Positions 8,503-42,116 of a DNA stretch of 64,000 nt are shown piece after piece. A program made the translations under genes and the position numbers. The notes beneath the pieces are model-generated. The model saw only the letters and a list, made by a program, of their open reading frames with translations, was not told the DNA's origin and searched no databases. The first letter of the stretch is position 1; each line of letters starts with the position of its first letter. This stretch comes from Minisyncoccia bacterium (GTDB lineage: Bacteria; Patescibacteriota; Minisyncoccia; UBA6257; GWB1-50-10). The DNA is taken from NCBI GenBank assembly GCA_049997815.1, contig JBEKVQ010000002.1, positions 10,483 to 74,482 on the forward strand. The letters run 5' to 3'.

Positions 8503-11001
8503 ATGAACGATCTTTACTTCAAGGAACCGAAATTATCGCTTACCGCCGCCGGAGAATTTTTGGTGCGGCTCGTGACCTACTCCATTTATGCCCTGCTCGT
8601 CGCCTCGGTCGTCGTGCTCTTTCTTTCCGGTGCGGGCCCGCTCCAGTATCTTGCCCTTCTACTCTCGCTTTTCCTCATAGACCGGCTGCTTCACGTTAAC
8701 GATGGAGAGAGGAATCTTTCCGAGATTGGCGGCCGCAACAAAAATCTTTCCGAAGCGGTCGCGCCGGCCGCCTACCGCGCCCTAAGCCGGGCTTTTCGAA
8801 AGTCGTATATCGTCGGCCAGAATCTTCGCCTCCTCTTCTTGGTTGAATTGGCCGACAGAAAGGACGTCCGGGAGATATTGAAGCGGTTGGATGTGAAAGC
8901 GGATGAGTTTCAGAATAAGGCCCTGGAGTTTTTGGAAAGGGAGGGCAATGTTCCGAGTTCAAGCAAGACCGATAACCTGGCGGATGTCGCAAATCTGACC
9001 ATTGCGGCTTACGGAAGCGCCCTAAAGGCGAACGAGAGATTCATCGAGCCGAGAAATTTCCTTTCGGCGCTCGCCTCCACCGATGATCCGATCCTGAAAA
9101 CCTTCTTCAATCTTTTCAACCTGGAAGAAAAAGACATCCAAGCCGCGAGCGTTTTTGGCCGTTTTCGCCGTCTCTTCGGCCACCTCCGATTTTTGCCGGC
9201 GGTTCTCGGGGGGTTCGCTCAACAACCGAGATTCCTTCGGCATCGGGTGATGAACCGCGCCTGGACGGCCCGGCCAACCCCGACCTTGGACCAATTCAGC
9301 CGGGATCTCACCGATCTGGCGAGAGAAGAAAGGATAGGATTTTTGGTGGGACACGAGGATGAATTCAACGAACTGATCCAGGTTATCTCCCGTCCCGGCA
9401 AGCCCAATGTAATCCTGGTCGGCGAACCGGGAGCCGGCAAATCGTCCATCGTCGCTCATCTCGCCTTCCGAATGGTTAAAGACGAAGTCCCGCCGGTTCT
9501 TTTTGATAAGCGCTTGGTATCCCTGGAAATAAACCGGCTCGTCTCGAACGCCACGGGCGACGTTCTCTCCGGACGCCTTCAAAAAATAACCGAAGAAATT
9601 TTGAAAGCGGGGAACATCGTTCTTTTCATTCCCAATATGCACGACCTCTTCCGGACCGCCGAAGAGCAATCCTTAAATGCGATAGACATCATATTCCCCG
9701 TGGTGAAGGAAAACGCCATACCGGTCATAGGCGAAACCTATCCCAAGGAATTCAAAGAATTCATCGAACCGCGCTCGGATTTCATGGAACAGTTCGAGGT
9801 GGTGAACGTGAACGAGGTCTCGGAGGAAGATGCCGTGAAGTTTCTTACTTACGAGGGCCTGATACTGGAGCAGGAGTTCGGGGTGTTCATCACTTATCGC
9901 GCCATTCGGGAGGCGGTCGTTTTGGCTCACCGCTATCTTCGCACGAGGCCGCTGCCGGGAAGCGCCACCAATCTTTTGAAGATGGCCCTGACCGAGATGA
10001 AGGAAAACAAGGATAAGATCTTGAACGCCGATGACGTCGCCGCCGTGGCCGAGAAGCTCACTAAGATACCCATCCAAAAAGCCGGAAAACCGGAGGTCAA
10101 AAAATTACTGAATCTCGAGCAGGACATCCACGAGAAGTTCGTAGATCAAGACGTAGCGGTGCGTTCGGTTTCGCAGGCCCTTCGGGAATACCGGAGCGGA
10201 CTTACGCGGCAGGGCGGACCCATCGCCTCATTCCTCTTTGTCGGTCCCACGGGCGTCGGTAAAACGGAGTTGGCCAAAATTTTGGCCCAGATCCAGTTTG
10301 GTTCAAAGGATGCGATGGAGCGCTTCGATATGTCGGAGTACCAGGATAAGACCAGCGTCTTTCGGCTCATCGGCAATCCGGACGGTTCGAGAACCGGTTC
10401 CTTGACCGACGCGGTCATCGCGAAGCCGTTCTCTCTGGTATTGCTGGACGAGTTTGAAAAAGCCCATCCGGATATCCTGAATATCTTCCTTCAGGTTTTG
10501 GATGATGGGCGGCTTACCGACAGCCTGAATCGGACCGTGAACTTCGAGAATACCATTATTATTGCCACCTCGAACGCCCACTCCGAGTTCATAAAAGTGG
10601 AGACGGAAAAGGGACGGCCCGGCGAGGAAATAGCGGACGATCTCAAGAAGAAACTAACCGATTACTTCAAGCCGGAGCTTCTGAACCGCTTCTCGGATGT
10701 TATCGTCTTTCGGAATTTGAAGCCGGAAGAGATCGCCTCGGTGACGGTCTTTATGATGAAGGAGCTGGCGGGACTGCTCTCCGAAACCAACGGCATAGAA
10801 TTCTCCTGGGACGAGGCGGTTGTGGGCGAACTGGTCCGACTCGGCTACAGTCCGGTCTTCGGAGCGCGCCCGCTCCGGCAGACCATATCCGATGCGATTC
10901 GCAGCGTTCTTGCGGAAAAGATACTGAAGGAAGAGATAAAAAGAGGGGATAAGGTTCGCGCGGTTTTTGAAGGCGGAAAATTCGGGTTCAAGACCGGATA
11001 A
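8503..11001 (+). CDS. membrane-anchored Hsp100/Clp-family AAA+ ATPase (ClpC/ClpB-like paralogue; D1 Walker B degenerate)
   Basis: N-terminal two hydrophobic helices, then Clp_N-like repeats. D1 Walker A GEPGAGKS, but D1 Walker B reads FIPNMH instead of FIDE(L/I)H. D2 has [10 protein letters not shown] and LVLLDEFEKAH. No IGF/LGF ClpP-docking tripeptide seen. Confidence 0.75.
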   Translation: MNDLYFKEPKLSLTAAGEFLVRLVTYSIYALLVASVVVLFLSGAGPLQYLALLLSLFLIDRLLHVNDGERNLSEIGGRNKNLSEAVAPAAYRALSRAFRKSYIVGQNLRLLFLVELADRKDVREILKRLDVKADEFQNKALEFLEREGNVPSSSKTDNLADVANLTIAAYGSALKANERFIEPRNFLSALASTDDPILKTFFNLFNLEEKDIQAASVFGRFRRLFGHLRFLPAVLGGFAQQPRFLRHRVMNRAWTARPTPTLDQFSRDLTDLAREERIGFLVGHEDEFNELIQVISRPGKPNVILVGEPGAGKSSIVAHLAFRMVKDEVPPVLFDKRLVSLEINRLVSNATGDVLSGRLQKITEEILKAGNIVLFIPNMHDLFRTAEEQSLNAIDIIFPVVKENAIPVIGETYPKEFKEFIEPRSDFMEQFEVVNVNEVSEEDAVKFLTYEGLILEQEFGVFITYRAIREAVVLAHRYLRTRPLPGSATNLLKMALTEMKENKDKILNADDVAAVAEKLTKIPIQKAGKPEVKKLLNLEQDIHEKFVDQDVAVRSVSQALREYRSGLTRQGGPIASFLFVGPTGVGKTELAKILAQIQFGSKDAMERFDMSEYQDKTSVFRLIGNPDGSRTGSLTDAVIAKPFSLVLLDEFEKAHPDILNIFLQVLDDGRLTDSLNRTVNFENTIIIATSNAHSEFIKVETEKGRPGEEIADDLKKKLTDYFKPELLNRFSDVIVFRNLKPEEIASVTVFMMKELAGLLSETNGIEFSWDEAVVGELVRLGYSPVFGARPLRQTISDAIRSVLAEKILKEEIKRGDKVRAVFEGGKFGFKTG

Positions 11002-11019
11002 GAGCGCATAATTTTCAAA

Positions 11020-11691
11020 ATGAGATTCAGCGTCAATGTAAATTTTAATCTCAGGGACCTTAAGGTGAACCGGCTCATTCGGTTCTTTGTGATATCCGAC
11101 CTTTTCTTCTGGAGCGGGTGGGGACTCTTAACGCCCATCTTCGCCATCTTCATAATCGACCGCATCCCGGGGGCCTCGGTACTTACGGTCGGTATCGCCT
11201 CGGCCGTTTACTGGGTGGTCAAGGCGTTATTCCAGATGCCGGTAGCCCTCTATTTGGACAAGCATGAGGGGGAGCGGGATGATTTCCATGCGCTCGTCTC
11301 CGGCTTGATTTTGGGCGGAATAACGGCCTTCTCGTTCTTGCTTGTGGATAGCGCGGCCGGTTTGTACTTCGTCGTATTTCTCCAGGCCCTGGCTTTCGGT
11401 TTGTACACGCCGGCCTGGTCAGCGATTTTTTCCCGACATCTGGACAAGAAGAACTATGCCTTCGATTGGTCGCTCGACAACACCGTAATAGGCCTGGCCT
11501 TGGGCATAACCGCATTTCTCGGCGCCGCCCTGGCCGACGTCTTCGGCTTTGAGGCCATATTCGTCGTTACCGGAGTACTGTCCTTCATAAGCGCGCTGAT
11601 ACTCATCTTTGTTCCCGATCTGATACTGCCGGAAGTTAAGAGCGAGTCGGCGATAATCCAAGACCATAAACCGGCCAATATTGGAAAATGA
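11020..11691 (+). CDS. half-size MFS-like membrane transporter
   Basis: Six hydrophobic helices resembling a single MFS repeat; overlaps the next gene. Confidence 0.4.
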   Translation: MRFSVNVNFNLRDLKVNRLIRFFVISDLFFWSGWGLLTPIFAIFIIDRIPGASVLTVGIASAVYWVVKALFQMPVALYLDKHEGERDDFHALVSGLILGGITAFSFLLVDSAAGLYFVVFLQALAFGLYTPAWSAIFSRHLDKKNYAFDWSLDNTVIGLALGITAFLGAALADVFGFEAIFVVTGVLSFISALILIFVPDLILPEVKSESAIIQDHKPANIGK

Positions 11692-14616: not shown

Positions 14617-14846
14617 ATTTTTGCTTTGTTATCGGCCTTTAAAACATTATAGCCCAAAACATATTTAAACTCGATTCGTCGGCGACAAAACCGCCGATTA
14701 GGCGGCATTTTATTTTGTGGAAATGAGTACCTAAAAATGGAACTAGGGGAATATCTAATGAAACTGCCAAAATTAATCAATAAAGAATCTCTCTGGGTAA
14801 TAAAATAGCCAAGAACCTCACGGTCCCTGGCTAGTACTTGAAATCG

Positions 14847-16010
14847 CTAATATGTCCGGCTGAAAGCTCTTTTCTGTTTGCCGGACTTATGGGTATACCC
14901 GATTACGGTGAAGCGCTTCTTTGAAAATGGCGACCTCTTGATCTTGTACCCGAAAATATCGGAATTTTCGCAATGTACTAGGCCGATTACGCTGTCGTCG
15001 ACCGCCACTCCCTGTCTCGACTCGAAGTATCTTCTGTCCTGACCTTCCGGCGGAAGAATAATCTCTGCTGCTACGCGGCCATCTGGTAGGAACTTAACAT
15101 GTGTGACGGTATCGAACCTGTTTTCCCATAGCTTACCATCAACTGCGACGGTTTCAGTTCTAGAACCAAGTTTCTCGACAGAAACGGGGATTGCGACCCT
15201 GCCATTCTCATCAAACGCCATCCAGAATCCATCGACGGTAACGAAATCCGTTCCCCATGCCTTGCCATCAACAGCGATCGTCCATCGCGGCTTCAATCCT
15301 CGCTGCTGGATACTCAGACTTGTCGTGAGCGGAACCACGCATTTGCCGTTCGGGGTAAAATGCGGCTGGAATATTTGCTGATTGTTTATGTATGCGTGAT
15401 TAGCACACAGCATAAATGAGTCTGACGCACTGTCGCCGCTATAACGTTCCGGCACCAGGCAAGCCAATGAATCCCATGGTTTATCATCAGCGACAACCAC
15501 CACTTTTCTGTCTCGGATCACGGTGACTGCCAGTCTTCGGCTGTCTGGACTGAATTTGGGAGTTCTCCAATAAAACTCCTCATCGAATGAGGTTCCCCAC
15601 AATTCGTCGTTGACGGCGATCCTAAACTTGCCATTCTCCTTGACAACAGCAGCTAAGCGATTGCCATCGGGGCTTAGTGTAAGAATGTACACCTTGTCGA
15701 ACCAATGGCTCCATGGTCGGGCACCCTCCATAACAATCGTTTCTTTAATCATTCCATCGTTCTCGATCGCTCCATCATGCTCATCAAACTTCGCCTTAAT
15801 GACAGCGACCAATCTTCTTGTCAGTTGATTTGGACATATGCCGTAGTATTGTGCGTCTACCATTTGATATCTTACTCCCTCAAAAAGGTGGCCGCTGCAC
15901 ATATCCTCAAGACAAATTCCTCCTATGGCGATCGATCGATGCAATACCACCTCGGGATTAGATTTCCGGTAAAGATGGTAATCAACCGTATCCTGCCGTT
16001 TCGATTTCAC
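14847..16010 (-). CDS. WG-repeat-containing protein (in an AT-rich islet)
   Basis: Repeated AVDGKAWGT / AVNDELWGT / AVDGKLWEN units spaced about 40-60 aa apart. The gene and both flanks are visibly AT-rich. Confidence 0.55.
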   Translation of the reverse strand: MKSKRQDTVDYHLYRKSNPEVVLHRSIAIGGICLEDMCSGHLFEGVRYQMVDAQYYGICPNQLTRRLVAVIKAKFDEHDGAIENDGMIKETIVMEGARPWSHWFDKVYILTLSPDGNRLAAVVKENGKFRIAVNDELWGTSFDEEFYWRTPKFSPDSRRLAVTVIRDRKVVVVADDKPWDSLACLVPERYSGDSASDSFMLCANHAYINNQQIFQPHFTPNGKCVVPLTTSLSIQQRGLKPRWTIAVDGKAWGTDFVTVDGFWMAFDENGRVAIPVSVEKLGSRTETVAVDGKLWENRFDTVTHVKFLPDGRVAAEIILPPEGQDRRYFESRQGVAVDDSVIGLVHCENSDIFGYKIKRSPFSKKRFTVIGYTHKSGKQKRAFSRTY

Positions 16011-16198
16011 CTCAGCCTCCTATTGGTTTGTTAAACTAAGTGATTTATAAAATTCTTTTGGAATCAAAAATCACGGTTCCATTCTGTCTGCATTATACAA
16101 CTAAATATGTAAGATGTCAAATCATGTTCAACCCCCATTAATCAAGAAACTAACGCAAAACAACCCTTATTTATCAGGGTCAGACGCAGTTTTTAACC

Positions 16199-16327
16199 GT
16201 GGAGATGGCGAGAATTGGCCTCGCCTCTCGCTCTGCTCGGGCTGGCCACCGCCTCGCGTGCCTTCGGCACATGCTCCGGCGTTCAATTCCGCCCGCAAGA
16301 CAAGCAGTTGTCTTGCTCATCTCCCCA
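16199..16327 (-). repeat. ssrA-derived mini element: 19-bp direct copy of the tmRNA 3' end plus inverted/5'-like copy, bracketing about 95 bp with a perfect 9-bp hairpin
   Basis: gtggagatggcgagaattg occurs at 16199-16217 and again at the ssrA 3' end (16372-16390). catctcccca at 16318-16327 matches the reverse complement of the same acceptor strand (tmRNA 5'-end-like GGGGAGAUG on the minus strand). Internal hairpin GCAAGACAA-CUGC-UUGUCUUGC. Confidence 0.5.
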
Positions 16328-16372
16328 TGAAACCAAAATATCCATAGGCAAGCTATGGACATTTTGATTTGT

Positions 16373-16683
16373 GGAGATGGCGAGAATTGAACTCGCGTAC
16401 GGAACGATTCGGCAAACGTTTCTACAAGTTTATTCCCTCGGTTGCCCTTGGGACGGTTTTGCTTTCCTGTTTTAGCGAAGGATACGGAAAGCGGATCTCC
16501 TCCGCGAACTCACGATATGACACCGGTTGATCCCTAGTGAGTATCAGGGCCGATGCGGCATTACGCGAAGGCGAATGCCGGAGCTACCGTTTTGTTGGCA
16601 GTTATCTTAGAGGCCGTTTTAGTGAGCGGCCGCCTCAGCTTGCTGCGCCTGCGTCGTCTATCCCGTCGAAGCCGATCATCCCC
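16373..16683 (-). ncRNA. ssrA: tmRNA (ssrA), one-piece, about 311 nt, CCA not encoded
   Basis: Minus-strand 5' end GGGGAUGAUCGGCUUCGACGGGAUAGACG closely matches the tmRNA consensus (GGGGCUGAUUCUGGAUUCGACGGGAU in E. coli). 3' end GCGAG-UUCAAUU-CUCGC-CAUCUCC-A has a T-arm and an acceptor strand pairing with G3.U70. Internal reading frame GCC AAC AAA ACG GUA GCU CCG GCA UUC GCC UUC GCG UAA gives tag (A)NKTVAPAFAFA. Lies immediately downstream of smpB. Confidence 0.85.
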
Positions 16684-38395: not shown

Positions 38396-38403
38396 ATCTA
38401 ATT

Positions 38404-38520
38404 TGTCGGGCCGCCGGGAATTGAACGTCGCTTCGCTCCCTAACACCCAGCGGTTTTAGTATTTCCGCCACGGGGAAACTTCCGTTTCCCCGACCCCTTT
38501 CCCGTTCAAATCCCGGCCCG
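38404..38520 (-). repeat. tRNA-Pro-derived element: a direct copy (16/16 + 6/7) and an inverted copy (17 nt) of the tRNA-Pro 3' end bracketing about 75 bp with a perfect 8-bp hairpin
   Basis: tgtcgggccgccggga at 38404-38419 repeats the 3' end of tRNA-Pro at 38546-38561. cccgttcaaatcccggcccg at 38501-38520 is its near-reverse complement. Internal hairpin CGGGGAAAC-uucc-GUUUCCCCG. Confidence 0.5.
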
Positions 38521-38545
38521 AAAAACGATTCTCGATTTTATGTTG

Positions 38546-41818: not shown

Positions 41819-42112
41819 GCCGCGGTAGCTCAGTGGTAGAGCGCTACCCTAAACTCTTTGGGGCCTTCCGCAGTAATGTGGATTGAATAATTGGGTGAAT
41901 TCGGGGGAAACTTCTTAAAAGAAATAATCCCGAGCCAAGCTCTGATGGGATCCGTCAGTTGGCGGAGGTATCGGAGAAGGTGTAGAGACTAGTAGGTGAG
42001 TCCCAACGATAATCCTACGCAAGCGCCCAACTTCCTTTTAGAAGGAAGATGATATAGTCCAAGCAAACCTTGGAAGAGGTAGGCGTCGGGTGTTCGATTC
42101 ACCCCCGCGGCA
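41819..42112 (+). tRNA. tRNA-Phe (anticodon GAA) interrupted by a 222-nt group I intron in the anticodon loop
   Basis: 5' exon GCCGCGGUAGCUCAGUGGUAGAGCGCUACCCU (41819-41850). 3' exon GAAGAGGUAGGCGUCGGGUGUUCGAUUCACCCCCGCGGCA (42073-42112). The joined exons fold as a canonical tRNA that is very similar to E. coli tRNA-Phe. Confidence 0.75.
41851..42072 (+). ncRNA. group I (IC3-like) self-splicing intron
   Basis: Exon U33 precedes the 5' splice site, which can pair CCCU.GGGG with intron nt 10-13 (P1). The intron ends in G. Contains GAGCCAAGCU and AAGGUGUAGAGACUAGUAGG segments that closely match the P7/P3 cores of bacterial tRNA introns (for example Azoarcus/Anabaena). Confidence 0.7.
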
Positions 42113-42116
42113 CAAA

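Follow-up and report, generated by a model that had tools for sequence, protein, structure and literature searches.

A gene-less mirror-repeat element behind the tmRNA gene of a Minisyncoccia bacterium and its possible link to GIY-YIG nuclease cassettes

Introduction

Genes for tRNA and tmRNA are classic landing sites for mobile DNA, and the known mechanisms for such insertions depend on integrases. Copies of the end of a tRNA gene are also known from Escherichia coli, where each unit of the tyrT 3' repeats, downstream of tRNA-Tyr, includes the final 19 nt of the tRNA. The genomes of Patescibacteria are among the smallest known in bacteria.

[quoted passage not shown] 2011, PMC3146451). In phage T4, SegB is a free-standing GIY-YIG endonuclease, and the 11-bp TpsiC stem-loop motif is part of its 27-bp site (PMC2330249). 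Insertions at ssrA and tRNA tails with duplications of the tail are already known, and so is a tRNA-associated GIY-YIG homing enzyme in T4. We found no description in the literature of a minimal GIY-YIG cassette fused to the 3' ends of tRNA or tmRNA genes in Patescibacteria, of the structured leader of such a cassette, or of mirror-repeat modules without ORFs, and none of GIY-YIG genes or mirror repeats behind ssrA or tRNA genes in CPR, which include the Patescibacteria.

Here we describe a stretch of about 130 bp without any gene, just behind ssrA in a Minisyncoccia bacterium. The window is the whole stretch of 64,000 nucleotides (64 kb) of contig JBEKVQ010000002.1 that was analysed, and all coordinates refer to it. 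Like the Dehalococcoides islands, the element has its own motif directly upstream of the repeat, it is part of tandem or nested arrays behind ssrA, recombinase-less members exist, and sister strains have a DsiB/DsiA-like pair of serine recombinases at this site. Unlike those islands it is only about 170 bp long with its terminator, its tail copies include a mirrored one, a feature not described for them, its end motif matches GIY-YIG cassettes and not the serine-recombinase islands of this lineage, and sister elements at various tRNA genes share the same core. With the tyrT repeats it shares the repetition of the last 19 nt or so of the gene immediately downstream, but those are tandem direct repeats with no mirrored copy, no core common to several tRNA species and no nuclease partner. 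The likeness to MITEs lies in its small size, the lack of an ORF, the terminal inverted repeats and the many hairpins. In contrast to MITEs, the inverted arms are copies of the tail of the adjacent gene and vary with the target while the core stays the same, and there is no transposase-bearing parent and no short target-site duplication of fixed length.

Results

The target gene, ssrA, is situated at 16371-16683 on the minus strand (ARAGORN; Rfam RF00023, 124.9 bits; tag peptide ANKTVAPAFAFA), and smpB immediately precedes it. Its functional tail, CAATTCTCGCCATCTCCAC at 16371-16389 (minus strand), reaches from C56 of the T-loop to the discriminator plus a C and is the proximal one of two copies. 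The original prediction, made from the letters alone, was that an exact second copy of the last 19 nt of ssrA is present at 16199-16217, and this was borne out. The 19-mer GTGGAGATGGCGAGAATTG has two exact occurrences, at 16199-16217 and 16371-16389, and no further one with up to 3 mismatches; chance alone would give about 0.01 matches at this tolerance, and two matches were obtained in none of 100 shuffles. The distal copy, also on the minus strand and with T-loop C56 as its first base, is identical to the gene at 19/19 positions, and the similarity between the two tails extends to 35 nt at 83%. The element was correctly placed just downstream of ssrA, at a distance of 43 nt and not 45, and this spacer is itself a terminator hairpin, flanked by A/T, at 16330-16370 (arms 16330-16347 and 16353-16370), which forms the centre of a long palindrome.

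The second part of the prediction was an acceptor strand in reverse complement at 16318-16327. The sequence there, CATCTCCCCA (GGGGAGATG on the minus strand, where the mirrored acceptor strand is read), is complementary to the end of ssrA at 9/10 positions. This is weak on its own, as a 7-mer of this kind occurs by chance in about 2% of the shuffles, but it belongs to a palindromic alignment of 55 columns in which the ssrA tail and the left half of the terminator pair with the right half and the inverted copy (score 50, shuffles 15.8 +/- 2.8), and the inverted copy is real. As a whole it covers 16278-16327, including an inverted T-loop, GTTCAATTC at 16281-16289, that had been overlooked. The mirrored T-loop region, at 16278-16293 on the minus strand, reads GGCG-TTCAATTC-CGCC on the plus strand and GGCGGAATTGAACGCC on the minus strand, and constitutes an inverted match of 11 nt at +82. 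Between the mirrored acceptor and the mirrored T-loop is the perfect hairpin that had been foreseen, with 9 bp, GCAAGACAA-CUGC-UUGUCUUGC, at 16295-16316. With a mirrored as well as a direct copy present, the locus holds more than an ordinary duplication of a 3' end, as originally argued.

The rest of the element consists of a GC-rich core at 16232-16277 (minus strand) with GGAGCA, the hairpin GUGCC-GAA-GGCAC and GCGAGGCGGUGGCC, and a right-end motif, GCGAGAGGCGAGGCCAAT at 16214-16231 (minus strand), which adjoins the distal direct copy; the junction reads GCGAGAGGCGAGGC followed by CAAT. Another terminator-like hairpin is located at 16161-16182 on the minus strand, 17 nt beyond the distal copy, and in a hypothetical empty allele ssrA would directly adjoin GGTTAAAAACTG. 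The GC content of the element is 64%, compared to 33% in the flanks.

Folding of the minus strand, which had been proposed as a check, gave a stable structure (MFE -63.9 kcal/mol, z = -3.9, with none of 200 shuffles equally stable). The predicted closing stem is there, with about 8 bp, but the MFE structure has a longer alternative helix in place of the proposed T-arm hairpin. The loop of that hairpin would be GCCAAUU compared to the canonical UUCAAUU, so U54-U55 are missing. ARAGORN and Rfam, the latter at gathering as well as permissive thresholds, gave no match to tRNA or tmRNA models in 16199-16327. A sub-threshold match of 23.6 bits to a permuted tmRNA was rejected as a sign of a known RNA family, as it consists only of the real ssrA end, the hairpin and GGGG. 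A group I intron in the ssrA T-loop has been reported in Clostridium botulinum; here the ssrA gene is uninterrupted at every locus and intron models gave no match, so this candidate was also rejected. No promoter was detected for the element, which sits after a terminator.

When each tRNA and tmRNA gene of the collected loci was scanned for copies of its own tail, nine loci, at genes for tmRNA, tRNA-Pro, Arg, Leu and Lys, were found to have one architecture. The gene tail and its terminator are followed by the mirrored tail, then by a GC-rich hairpin core and lastly by a direct tail copy that starts in the T-loop. The layout is complete, with the inverted copy at +13 to +82 and the direct copy at +119 to +233, behind ssrA and tRNA-Pro in the window, behind tRNA-Arg in L119 (20 and 15 nt) and L151 (16 and 16 nt), behind the tmRNA gene of L139 and behind tRNA-Leu in L155, and it is partial behind tRNA-Lys in L134 and the tmRNA genes of L011 and L056. 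A long palindrome centred on the terminator or the spacer is present in all nine, and the scores are 36-93 (shuffles about 15 +/- 3). The view that we are dealing with a family and not with chance is thus well founded, since the same layout is found at nine tRNA or tmRNA loci and the cores and terminal sequences are common to several genomes.

The counterpart behind tRNA-Pro, already pointed out in the original prediction, is real. It is found at 38403-38525 on the minus strand and has a mirrored T-loop and acceptor (inverted copy 19 nt at 89%), two covarying hairpins that we call core 1, and a direct tail copy of 24 nt at 96%; its fold has z = -2.8. Nothing similar is found behind the four other tRNAs of the window. 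Core 1, which reads AAAGGGGTCGGGRAAAC ... GTTTYCCCGTGGCGGAA ... and then the second hairpin, is also present behind tRNA-Arg in L119 (blastn E = 8e-9) and tRNA-Lys in L134, with compensatory changes in both hairpins, in a comparison of three sequences only. The core of the ssrA mimic (core 2) is colinear with a core of only modest similarity downstream of tRNA-Arg in L151; both have, in the same order, GGAATYGAACGCCGGAGCA, GAGGCGGTGSCC and GCGAG.GGCGA, and beyond one block of 19 nt the resemblance is modest (score 22, compared to 14.1 +/- 2.3). The shared cores span 60-100 nt across different tRNA loci in different genomes, and other cores are found in L139 and L155. The ends of the modules follow the resident gene, while the cores can be common to different targets. 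The inverted copy is closer to the proximal gene copy than the distal copy is in the mimics of tRNA-Pro and L119, and no T-stem is present in either orientation in those of tRNA-Pro, L119 and L151. The L155 mimic has a left arm of Leu type and a right arm of ssrA type, a chimera that needs an extra recombination. Searches with nhmmer and profiles of the cores gave no further copies in 0.84 Mb, and two pattern scans of viral contigs, which gave chance matches in coding DNA with no tRNA nearby, led us to reject a viral origin.

The closest relatives in SmpB are MAGs of Patescibacteria, and four genomes with SmpB 79-100% identical represent four different states of one site. In L012 (SmpB 79% identical) ssrA is followed by its own terminator and the cupin gene, which is an empty site. 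L010 (85%) has a structured leader, an 89-aa GIY-YIG ORF (Pfam PF01541, E = 3.6e-15), a partial direct copy, CAATTCCCGCCGT, that covers the T-loop and T-stem, and then the cupin gene. L011 (84%) has a decayed mimic behind ssrA, and in the window the mimic is followed by a block of 1.5 kb with a 387-aa ORF of no assigned function, and then by the cupin gene. The element is clearly an insertion relative to the empty site of a close relative, and L012 is the kind of empty site that the original prediction had suggested looking for. The polymorphism in presence and absence at ssrA is at the species level only; exact look-ups of SmpB, the 387-aa ORF, cupin and iPGM gave no empty site at the strain level, and the element is identical in every contig of this species that spans the site.

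It had also been pointed out that an integrase-bearing island at this position in related genomes would make the repeat a simple attR remnant. Such an island does exist in the sister strains L004 and L006, whose SmpB is identical to that of the window, but its scar is found elsewhere. In these strains the genes for a 518-aa large serine recombinase and a 148-aa protein with a resolvase domain adjoin ssrA on the reverse strand; L051, L180 and L182 have the same arrangement, and the islands of L180 and L182 can be read from end to end. The left ends are ACT(G)ATATTGGAAC directly after ...CCAC and the right end is CTAGTTCCAT...ATTTCCAC; in L182 the right end is CTAGTTCCATCTTTATCCATGGATTTCCAC, after which the ssrA terminator follows. 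The crossover of these islands is at ...CCAC and not in the T-loop, and at their far ends no long direct repeats were found, with no long exact repeat left. In the window, an attR-like sequence, ATATTCCCCTAGTTCCATTTTTAGGTACTCATTTCCAC, is located at 14717-14751 on the minus strand, about 1.5 kb beyond the mimic, with the ancestral ssrA terminator and then the cupin gene behind it. Aligned with the far end of the L182 island it scores 43, compared to 16.5 +/- 2.1. Since the far-end scar is at 14717-14751 and not at 16199-16217, the element is not the attR of that island, and judged from this similarity the window holds the scar of a serine-recombinase island as a feature distinct from the element. 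We had considered 14717-14744 as a third, decayed copy of the ssrA tail, but the comparison with L182 identifies it as an island end of attR type. An integrase next door was likewise rejected, as the 387-aa ORF at 14847-16010 has no Pfam match and is not a recombinase. No integrase or transposase is situated beside either mimic, and there is no homologue of the resolvase within the 64-kb window.

Among 71 SmpB loci at the species level, 10 have a GIY-YIG ORF immediately after ssrA and in the same orientation. Within the 64-kb window, phmmer on six-frame ORFs found none. The right-end motif GCGAGAGGCGAGGCCAAT matches GCGAGAGGC[GA]A[GA]GCCAAT, which is located just after the GIY-YIG ORFs (88 aa) that follow ssrA in L031 and L047. 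With up to 3 mismatches allowed, the motif has only three matches in 0.84 Mb of Patescibacteria sequence, namely the window, L031 and L047. In the latter two it is positioned 27-65 nt past the GIY-YIG stop codon, directly before a partial direct copy of their own ssrA tail, and the tail copy after the motif starts at T-loop C56 in all three. Terminal sequences and insertion point are thus common to the element and to ORF-bearing copies. The tail copies are decayed in L010, L047, L105 and L149, and perfect in the window.

A metagenome scan was seeded with the alignment of the two proteins of L010 and L047, a seven-protein GIY-YIG alignment being too divergent, and returned 80 loci. The cassette begins with TCGA(C/T)TC directly after a tRNA/tmRNA-type 3' end in CA(C/T) in 70 of the 72 type-A loci with enough upstream DNA. 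The upstream gene is mostly tmRNA, but tRNA-Lys, Ala, Arg and Leu are also represented. The nuclease cassettes begin exactly after the ...CAC end of a real gene or of a mimic, the latter in L134, L139, L151 and L155, where the cassette adjoins the direct copy of the mimic and not the real gene. The structure of the leader is conserved, 8 of its 22 pairs show compensatory changes and no Rfam family matches it, and we regard it as a candidate for a new structured RNA motif. Its first helix (P1) takes in the discriminator A and the next C of the upstream gene. Because the leaders always start right after a tRNA-like ...A73-C, and P1 includes these bases, a tRNA-like 3' end is apparently required upstream, and it is the mimics that supply it in L134, L139, L151 and L155. 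The protein of about 88 aa is a bare GIY-YIG catalytic domain without a DNA-binding domain.

Discussion

The element is most likely the relic of a mobile element rather than a second tRNA-like gene. The best explanation, in which our confidence is about evenly balanced, assigns 16199-16327 and the terminator at 16328-16370 to a family of insertion modules that are associated with GIY-YIG nucleases and directed at the tails of tRNA and tmRNA genes; the element would be a member without an ORF, either non-autonomous or decayed. There is no nuclease gene in the window, so the link to GIY-YIG rests on the shared ends and on the recurrent co-location in other genomes. The original prediction offered three options. 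A remnant of integration with a palindromic end and a MITE that targets tRNA ends come closest to the evidence, whereas the third, an expressed tRNA-like minihelix, finds no support, with no match to tRNA, tmRNA or Rfam, no U54-U55 and no T-arm conserved across the family.

By analogy with SegB, the GIY-YIG nuclease would break the DNA at the conserved T-loop and 3' end of tRNA-type genes, and repair would then copy in a donor segment made up of a replacement tail and a payload. What stays behind as the distal direct repeat, to decay with time, would be the tail of the recipient itself from about C56 onward. As the distal copy is still identical at 19/19, the event would be recent, or the identity would have been kept by gene conversion. 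The copy in the window would either no longer have its nuclease gene or have been without one from the start, and could then be moved at most in trans; copies without an ORF may in general be degenerate stages of a homing cycle or non-autonomous riders. In common with SegB is a free-standing GIY-YIG gene among or behind tRNA genes, with gain and loss at a fixed locus among relatives. The recognition site of SegB is built around the conserved DNA of the TpsiC stem-loop, and cleavage in Patescibacteria is proposed only by analogy. The differences are that SegB, a full-length enzyme, includes a DNA-binding part, whereas the protein in Patescibacteria is a catalytic domain of 88 aa only, and that SegB loci have not been described with direct repeats of the target tail, mirrored copies or satellites without ORFs.

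A simple homing model would not lead one to expect the mirrored arm. Our favoured guess, which is speculation, is that the terminator hairpin could have primed fold-back DNA synthesis that ran off at the break in the T-loop; this would account for the position of the inner ends, at G53-C56 in the inverted as well as the direct copies. A further point against homing is that, in an allele with a cassette, the T-arm of the functional gene is still intact and would be open to self-cleavage.

A wider proposal, which we put forward tentatively and think is rather less likely to hold than to fail, is that Patescibacteria have a homing system based on the universally conserved tail of tRNA-type genes, with a minimal GIY-YIG cassette whose structured leader is fused, base for base, to the discriminator of a tRNA or tmRNA, a tail duplication that serves as a portable homology arm, and ORF-less mirror satellites, one of them being the element in the window. 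The satellites would re-create a tRNA-like 3' end behind the terminator of the host gene, and the cassette could use them as safe landing pads or for RNA processing.

Another explanation is that the 172-bp block is the remnant of an integrase-less island, mobilisable in cis by a site-specific recombinase, with the ssrA tail as attL and the 19-nt copy as attR. [quoted passage not shown] The islands of this lineage, however, cross over at ...CCAC, with other conserved ends and no long exact repeat, and the ends of those in L004, L180 and L182 differ from the ends of the element, whose right-end motif instead matches the GIY-YIG cassettes. That the same cores are found at tRNAs for Pro, Arg and Lys is also hard to reconcile with a sequence-specific recombinase, and there is no recombinase near the tRNA-Pro mimic or the mimics of L119, L134, L139, L151 and L155. 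We therefore consider this explanation unlikely, and it is possible mainly in the form of another, unseen recombinase family.

A functional structured RNA under selection is more doubtful still. It could be a tRNA-like module for RNase P or Z, the 3' end of which would be cut like that of a tRNA and release or stabilise a downstream transcript, or it could modulate the termination or processing of ssrA or the tRNA in cis by pairing with the tail of the gene. The GC-rich island in flanks of 33%, the significantly stable folds of both mimics (z = -3.9 for ssrA and -2.8 for tRNA-Pro) and the terminators on both sides are what could be expected of such an RNA, and the cassette leaders, which always follow a tRNA-like ...A73-C, covary in 8/22 pairs. 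The compensatory changes in the core-1 hairpins point in the same direction, but they rest on three sequences, and cores differ between instances (L139, L155). The ends, moreover, are conserved as copies of the neighbouring gene and not through covariation, the distal T-loop is non-canonical (GCCAAUU) with no T-arm or cloverleaf kept across the family, neither tRNA, tmRNA nor any other Rfam model matches, and the element sits after a terminator with no promoter detected.

The least probable explanation, a local forward/inverted/forward duplication of the tail by template switching or fold-back repair at the terminator and T-arm hairpins, with no mobile element and no function, agrees with the gene tail and inverted copy being the arms of a terminator-centred palindrome in nine of nine loci, with the inner ends of both copies at the T-loop and with the inverted copy being nearer the proximal gene copy in the tRNA-Pro and L119 mimics, but is very unlikely as it leaves the cores of 60-100 nt at different tRNA loci and genomes, the 18-nt end motif in common with the GIY-YIG cassettes and the recurrent physical association with the nuclease cassette unexplained.

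Returning to the GIY-YIG-associated insertion modules, their significance is that very small elements, both nuclease-bearing and gene-less, use tRNA and tmRNA sites, apparently without any recombinase. If the GIY-YIG protein cuts T-loop DNA, this would be a minimal homing system that can be broadly retargeted, and it would partly explain the unusual variability of tRNA loci in Patescibacteria. The mirrored tails are also a practical hazard, since they break assemblies and could mislead island finders that are keyed on repeats of tRNA tails. The window has two elements with different cores in 64 kb, and the assembly graphs break inside both mimics, which hints at multiple copies. One Logan contig of 22 kb ends inside both of them, pointing to a repeat or to polymorphism.

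Mimics behind tRNA genes

The insertion module behind tRNA-Pro (window 38403-38525, minus strand) is a sister to the ssrA mimic at 16199-16327, and carries a direct copy of 22 nt of the tRNA-Pro tail, a mirrored T-loop and acceptor, and two covarying hairpins. Its core was found again behind tRNA-Arg (L119, 2893-3036) and tRNA-Lys (L134, 236-355) in two of the loci we compared with the window. Logan contigs from several samples break inside the cores of both window mimics (the end of L003, the starts of L008 and L009, the end of L172), and one 22-kb contig, SRR13021855_75837, has one end in the ssrA mimic and the other in the tRNA-Pro mimic. Breaks of this kind suggest repetition or polymorphism of the cores within the population.

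Behind the tRNA-Leu gene of L155 (1038-1500) stand two mimics in tandem. The second has a mirrored T-loop of the Leu type and a direct copy of the ssrA type (CAATGCCCCCCCACCTCCAC), followed by a GIY-YIG leader, and this mixture of arms is evidence that elements from different targets have recombined.

The GIY-YIG cassette leader

The leader, which spans the stretch between the ...CAC junction and the start codon (ATG) of the nuclease ORF, is a conserved multi-helix motif (L081-L160, alignment A6). Helix P1 (CUCGACUCG/CGAGUCGAG) takes in the discriminator of the upstream gene, and there is also a GUGGYAARCCAC hairpin together with at least one CCYGAGC...GUCGARGG hairpin showing Y/R covariation. 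Compensatory pairs amount to 8 of 22 among 14 sequences. The leader had no match in Rfam and is a candidate for a new RNA motif. Some genomes also have GIY-YIG ORFs upstream of ssrA, between smpB and ssrA (L013, 4444-4710; L037, 4408-4707; L043, 4475-4627).

Islands at ssrA

Large serine recombinases adjoin ssrA, in reverse orientation, in L004 (1839-3847, with a small resolvase-domain partner), L006 (2588-2989), L051 (4936-6480), and L180 and L182 (both 10001-11600), a layout that is the same as in the Dehalococcoides ssrA islands. In L182 the recombinase gene lies at the head of an island, about 9 kb long, that also encodes Prim-Pol and a BglII-type restriction-modification system and contains tRNA-like genes.

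The window holds an attR-like end of such an island (14717-14751, minus strand), but not the corresponding recombinase. Next after this end come the ancestral ssrA terminator, at 14683-14716, and then the cupin gene. The block at 14847-16198 (minus strand), missing in the close relatives L012 and L010, is probably island cargo, and contains a terminator (16161-16182) and, at 16092-16120, a promoter that matches TTGACA-17-TATAAT perfectly. Its 387-aa ORF gives no match in Pfam, and the product is possibly a repeat or beta-propeller-like protein.

A split tRNA gene

At about 41823-42113 (plus strand) a tRNA gene, not called by ARAGORN, is split by a group I intron (Rfam match of 69.4 bits at 41841-42082). 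The exons, read by eye, suggest that the anticodon is GAA and that the intron follows U33. Patescibacteria tRNAs with group I introns have been described (PMC13011429).
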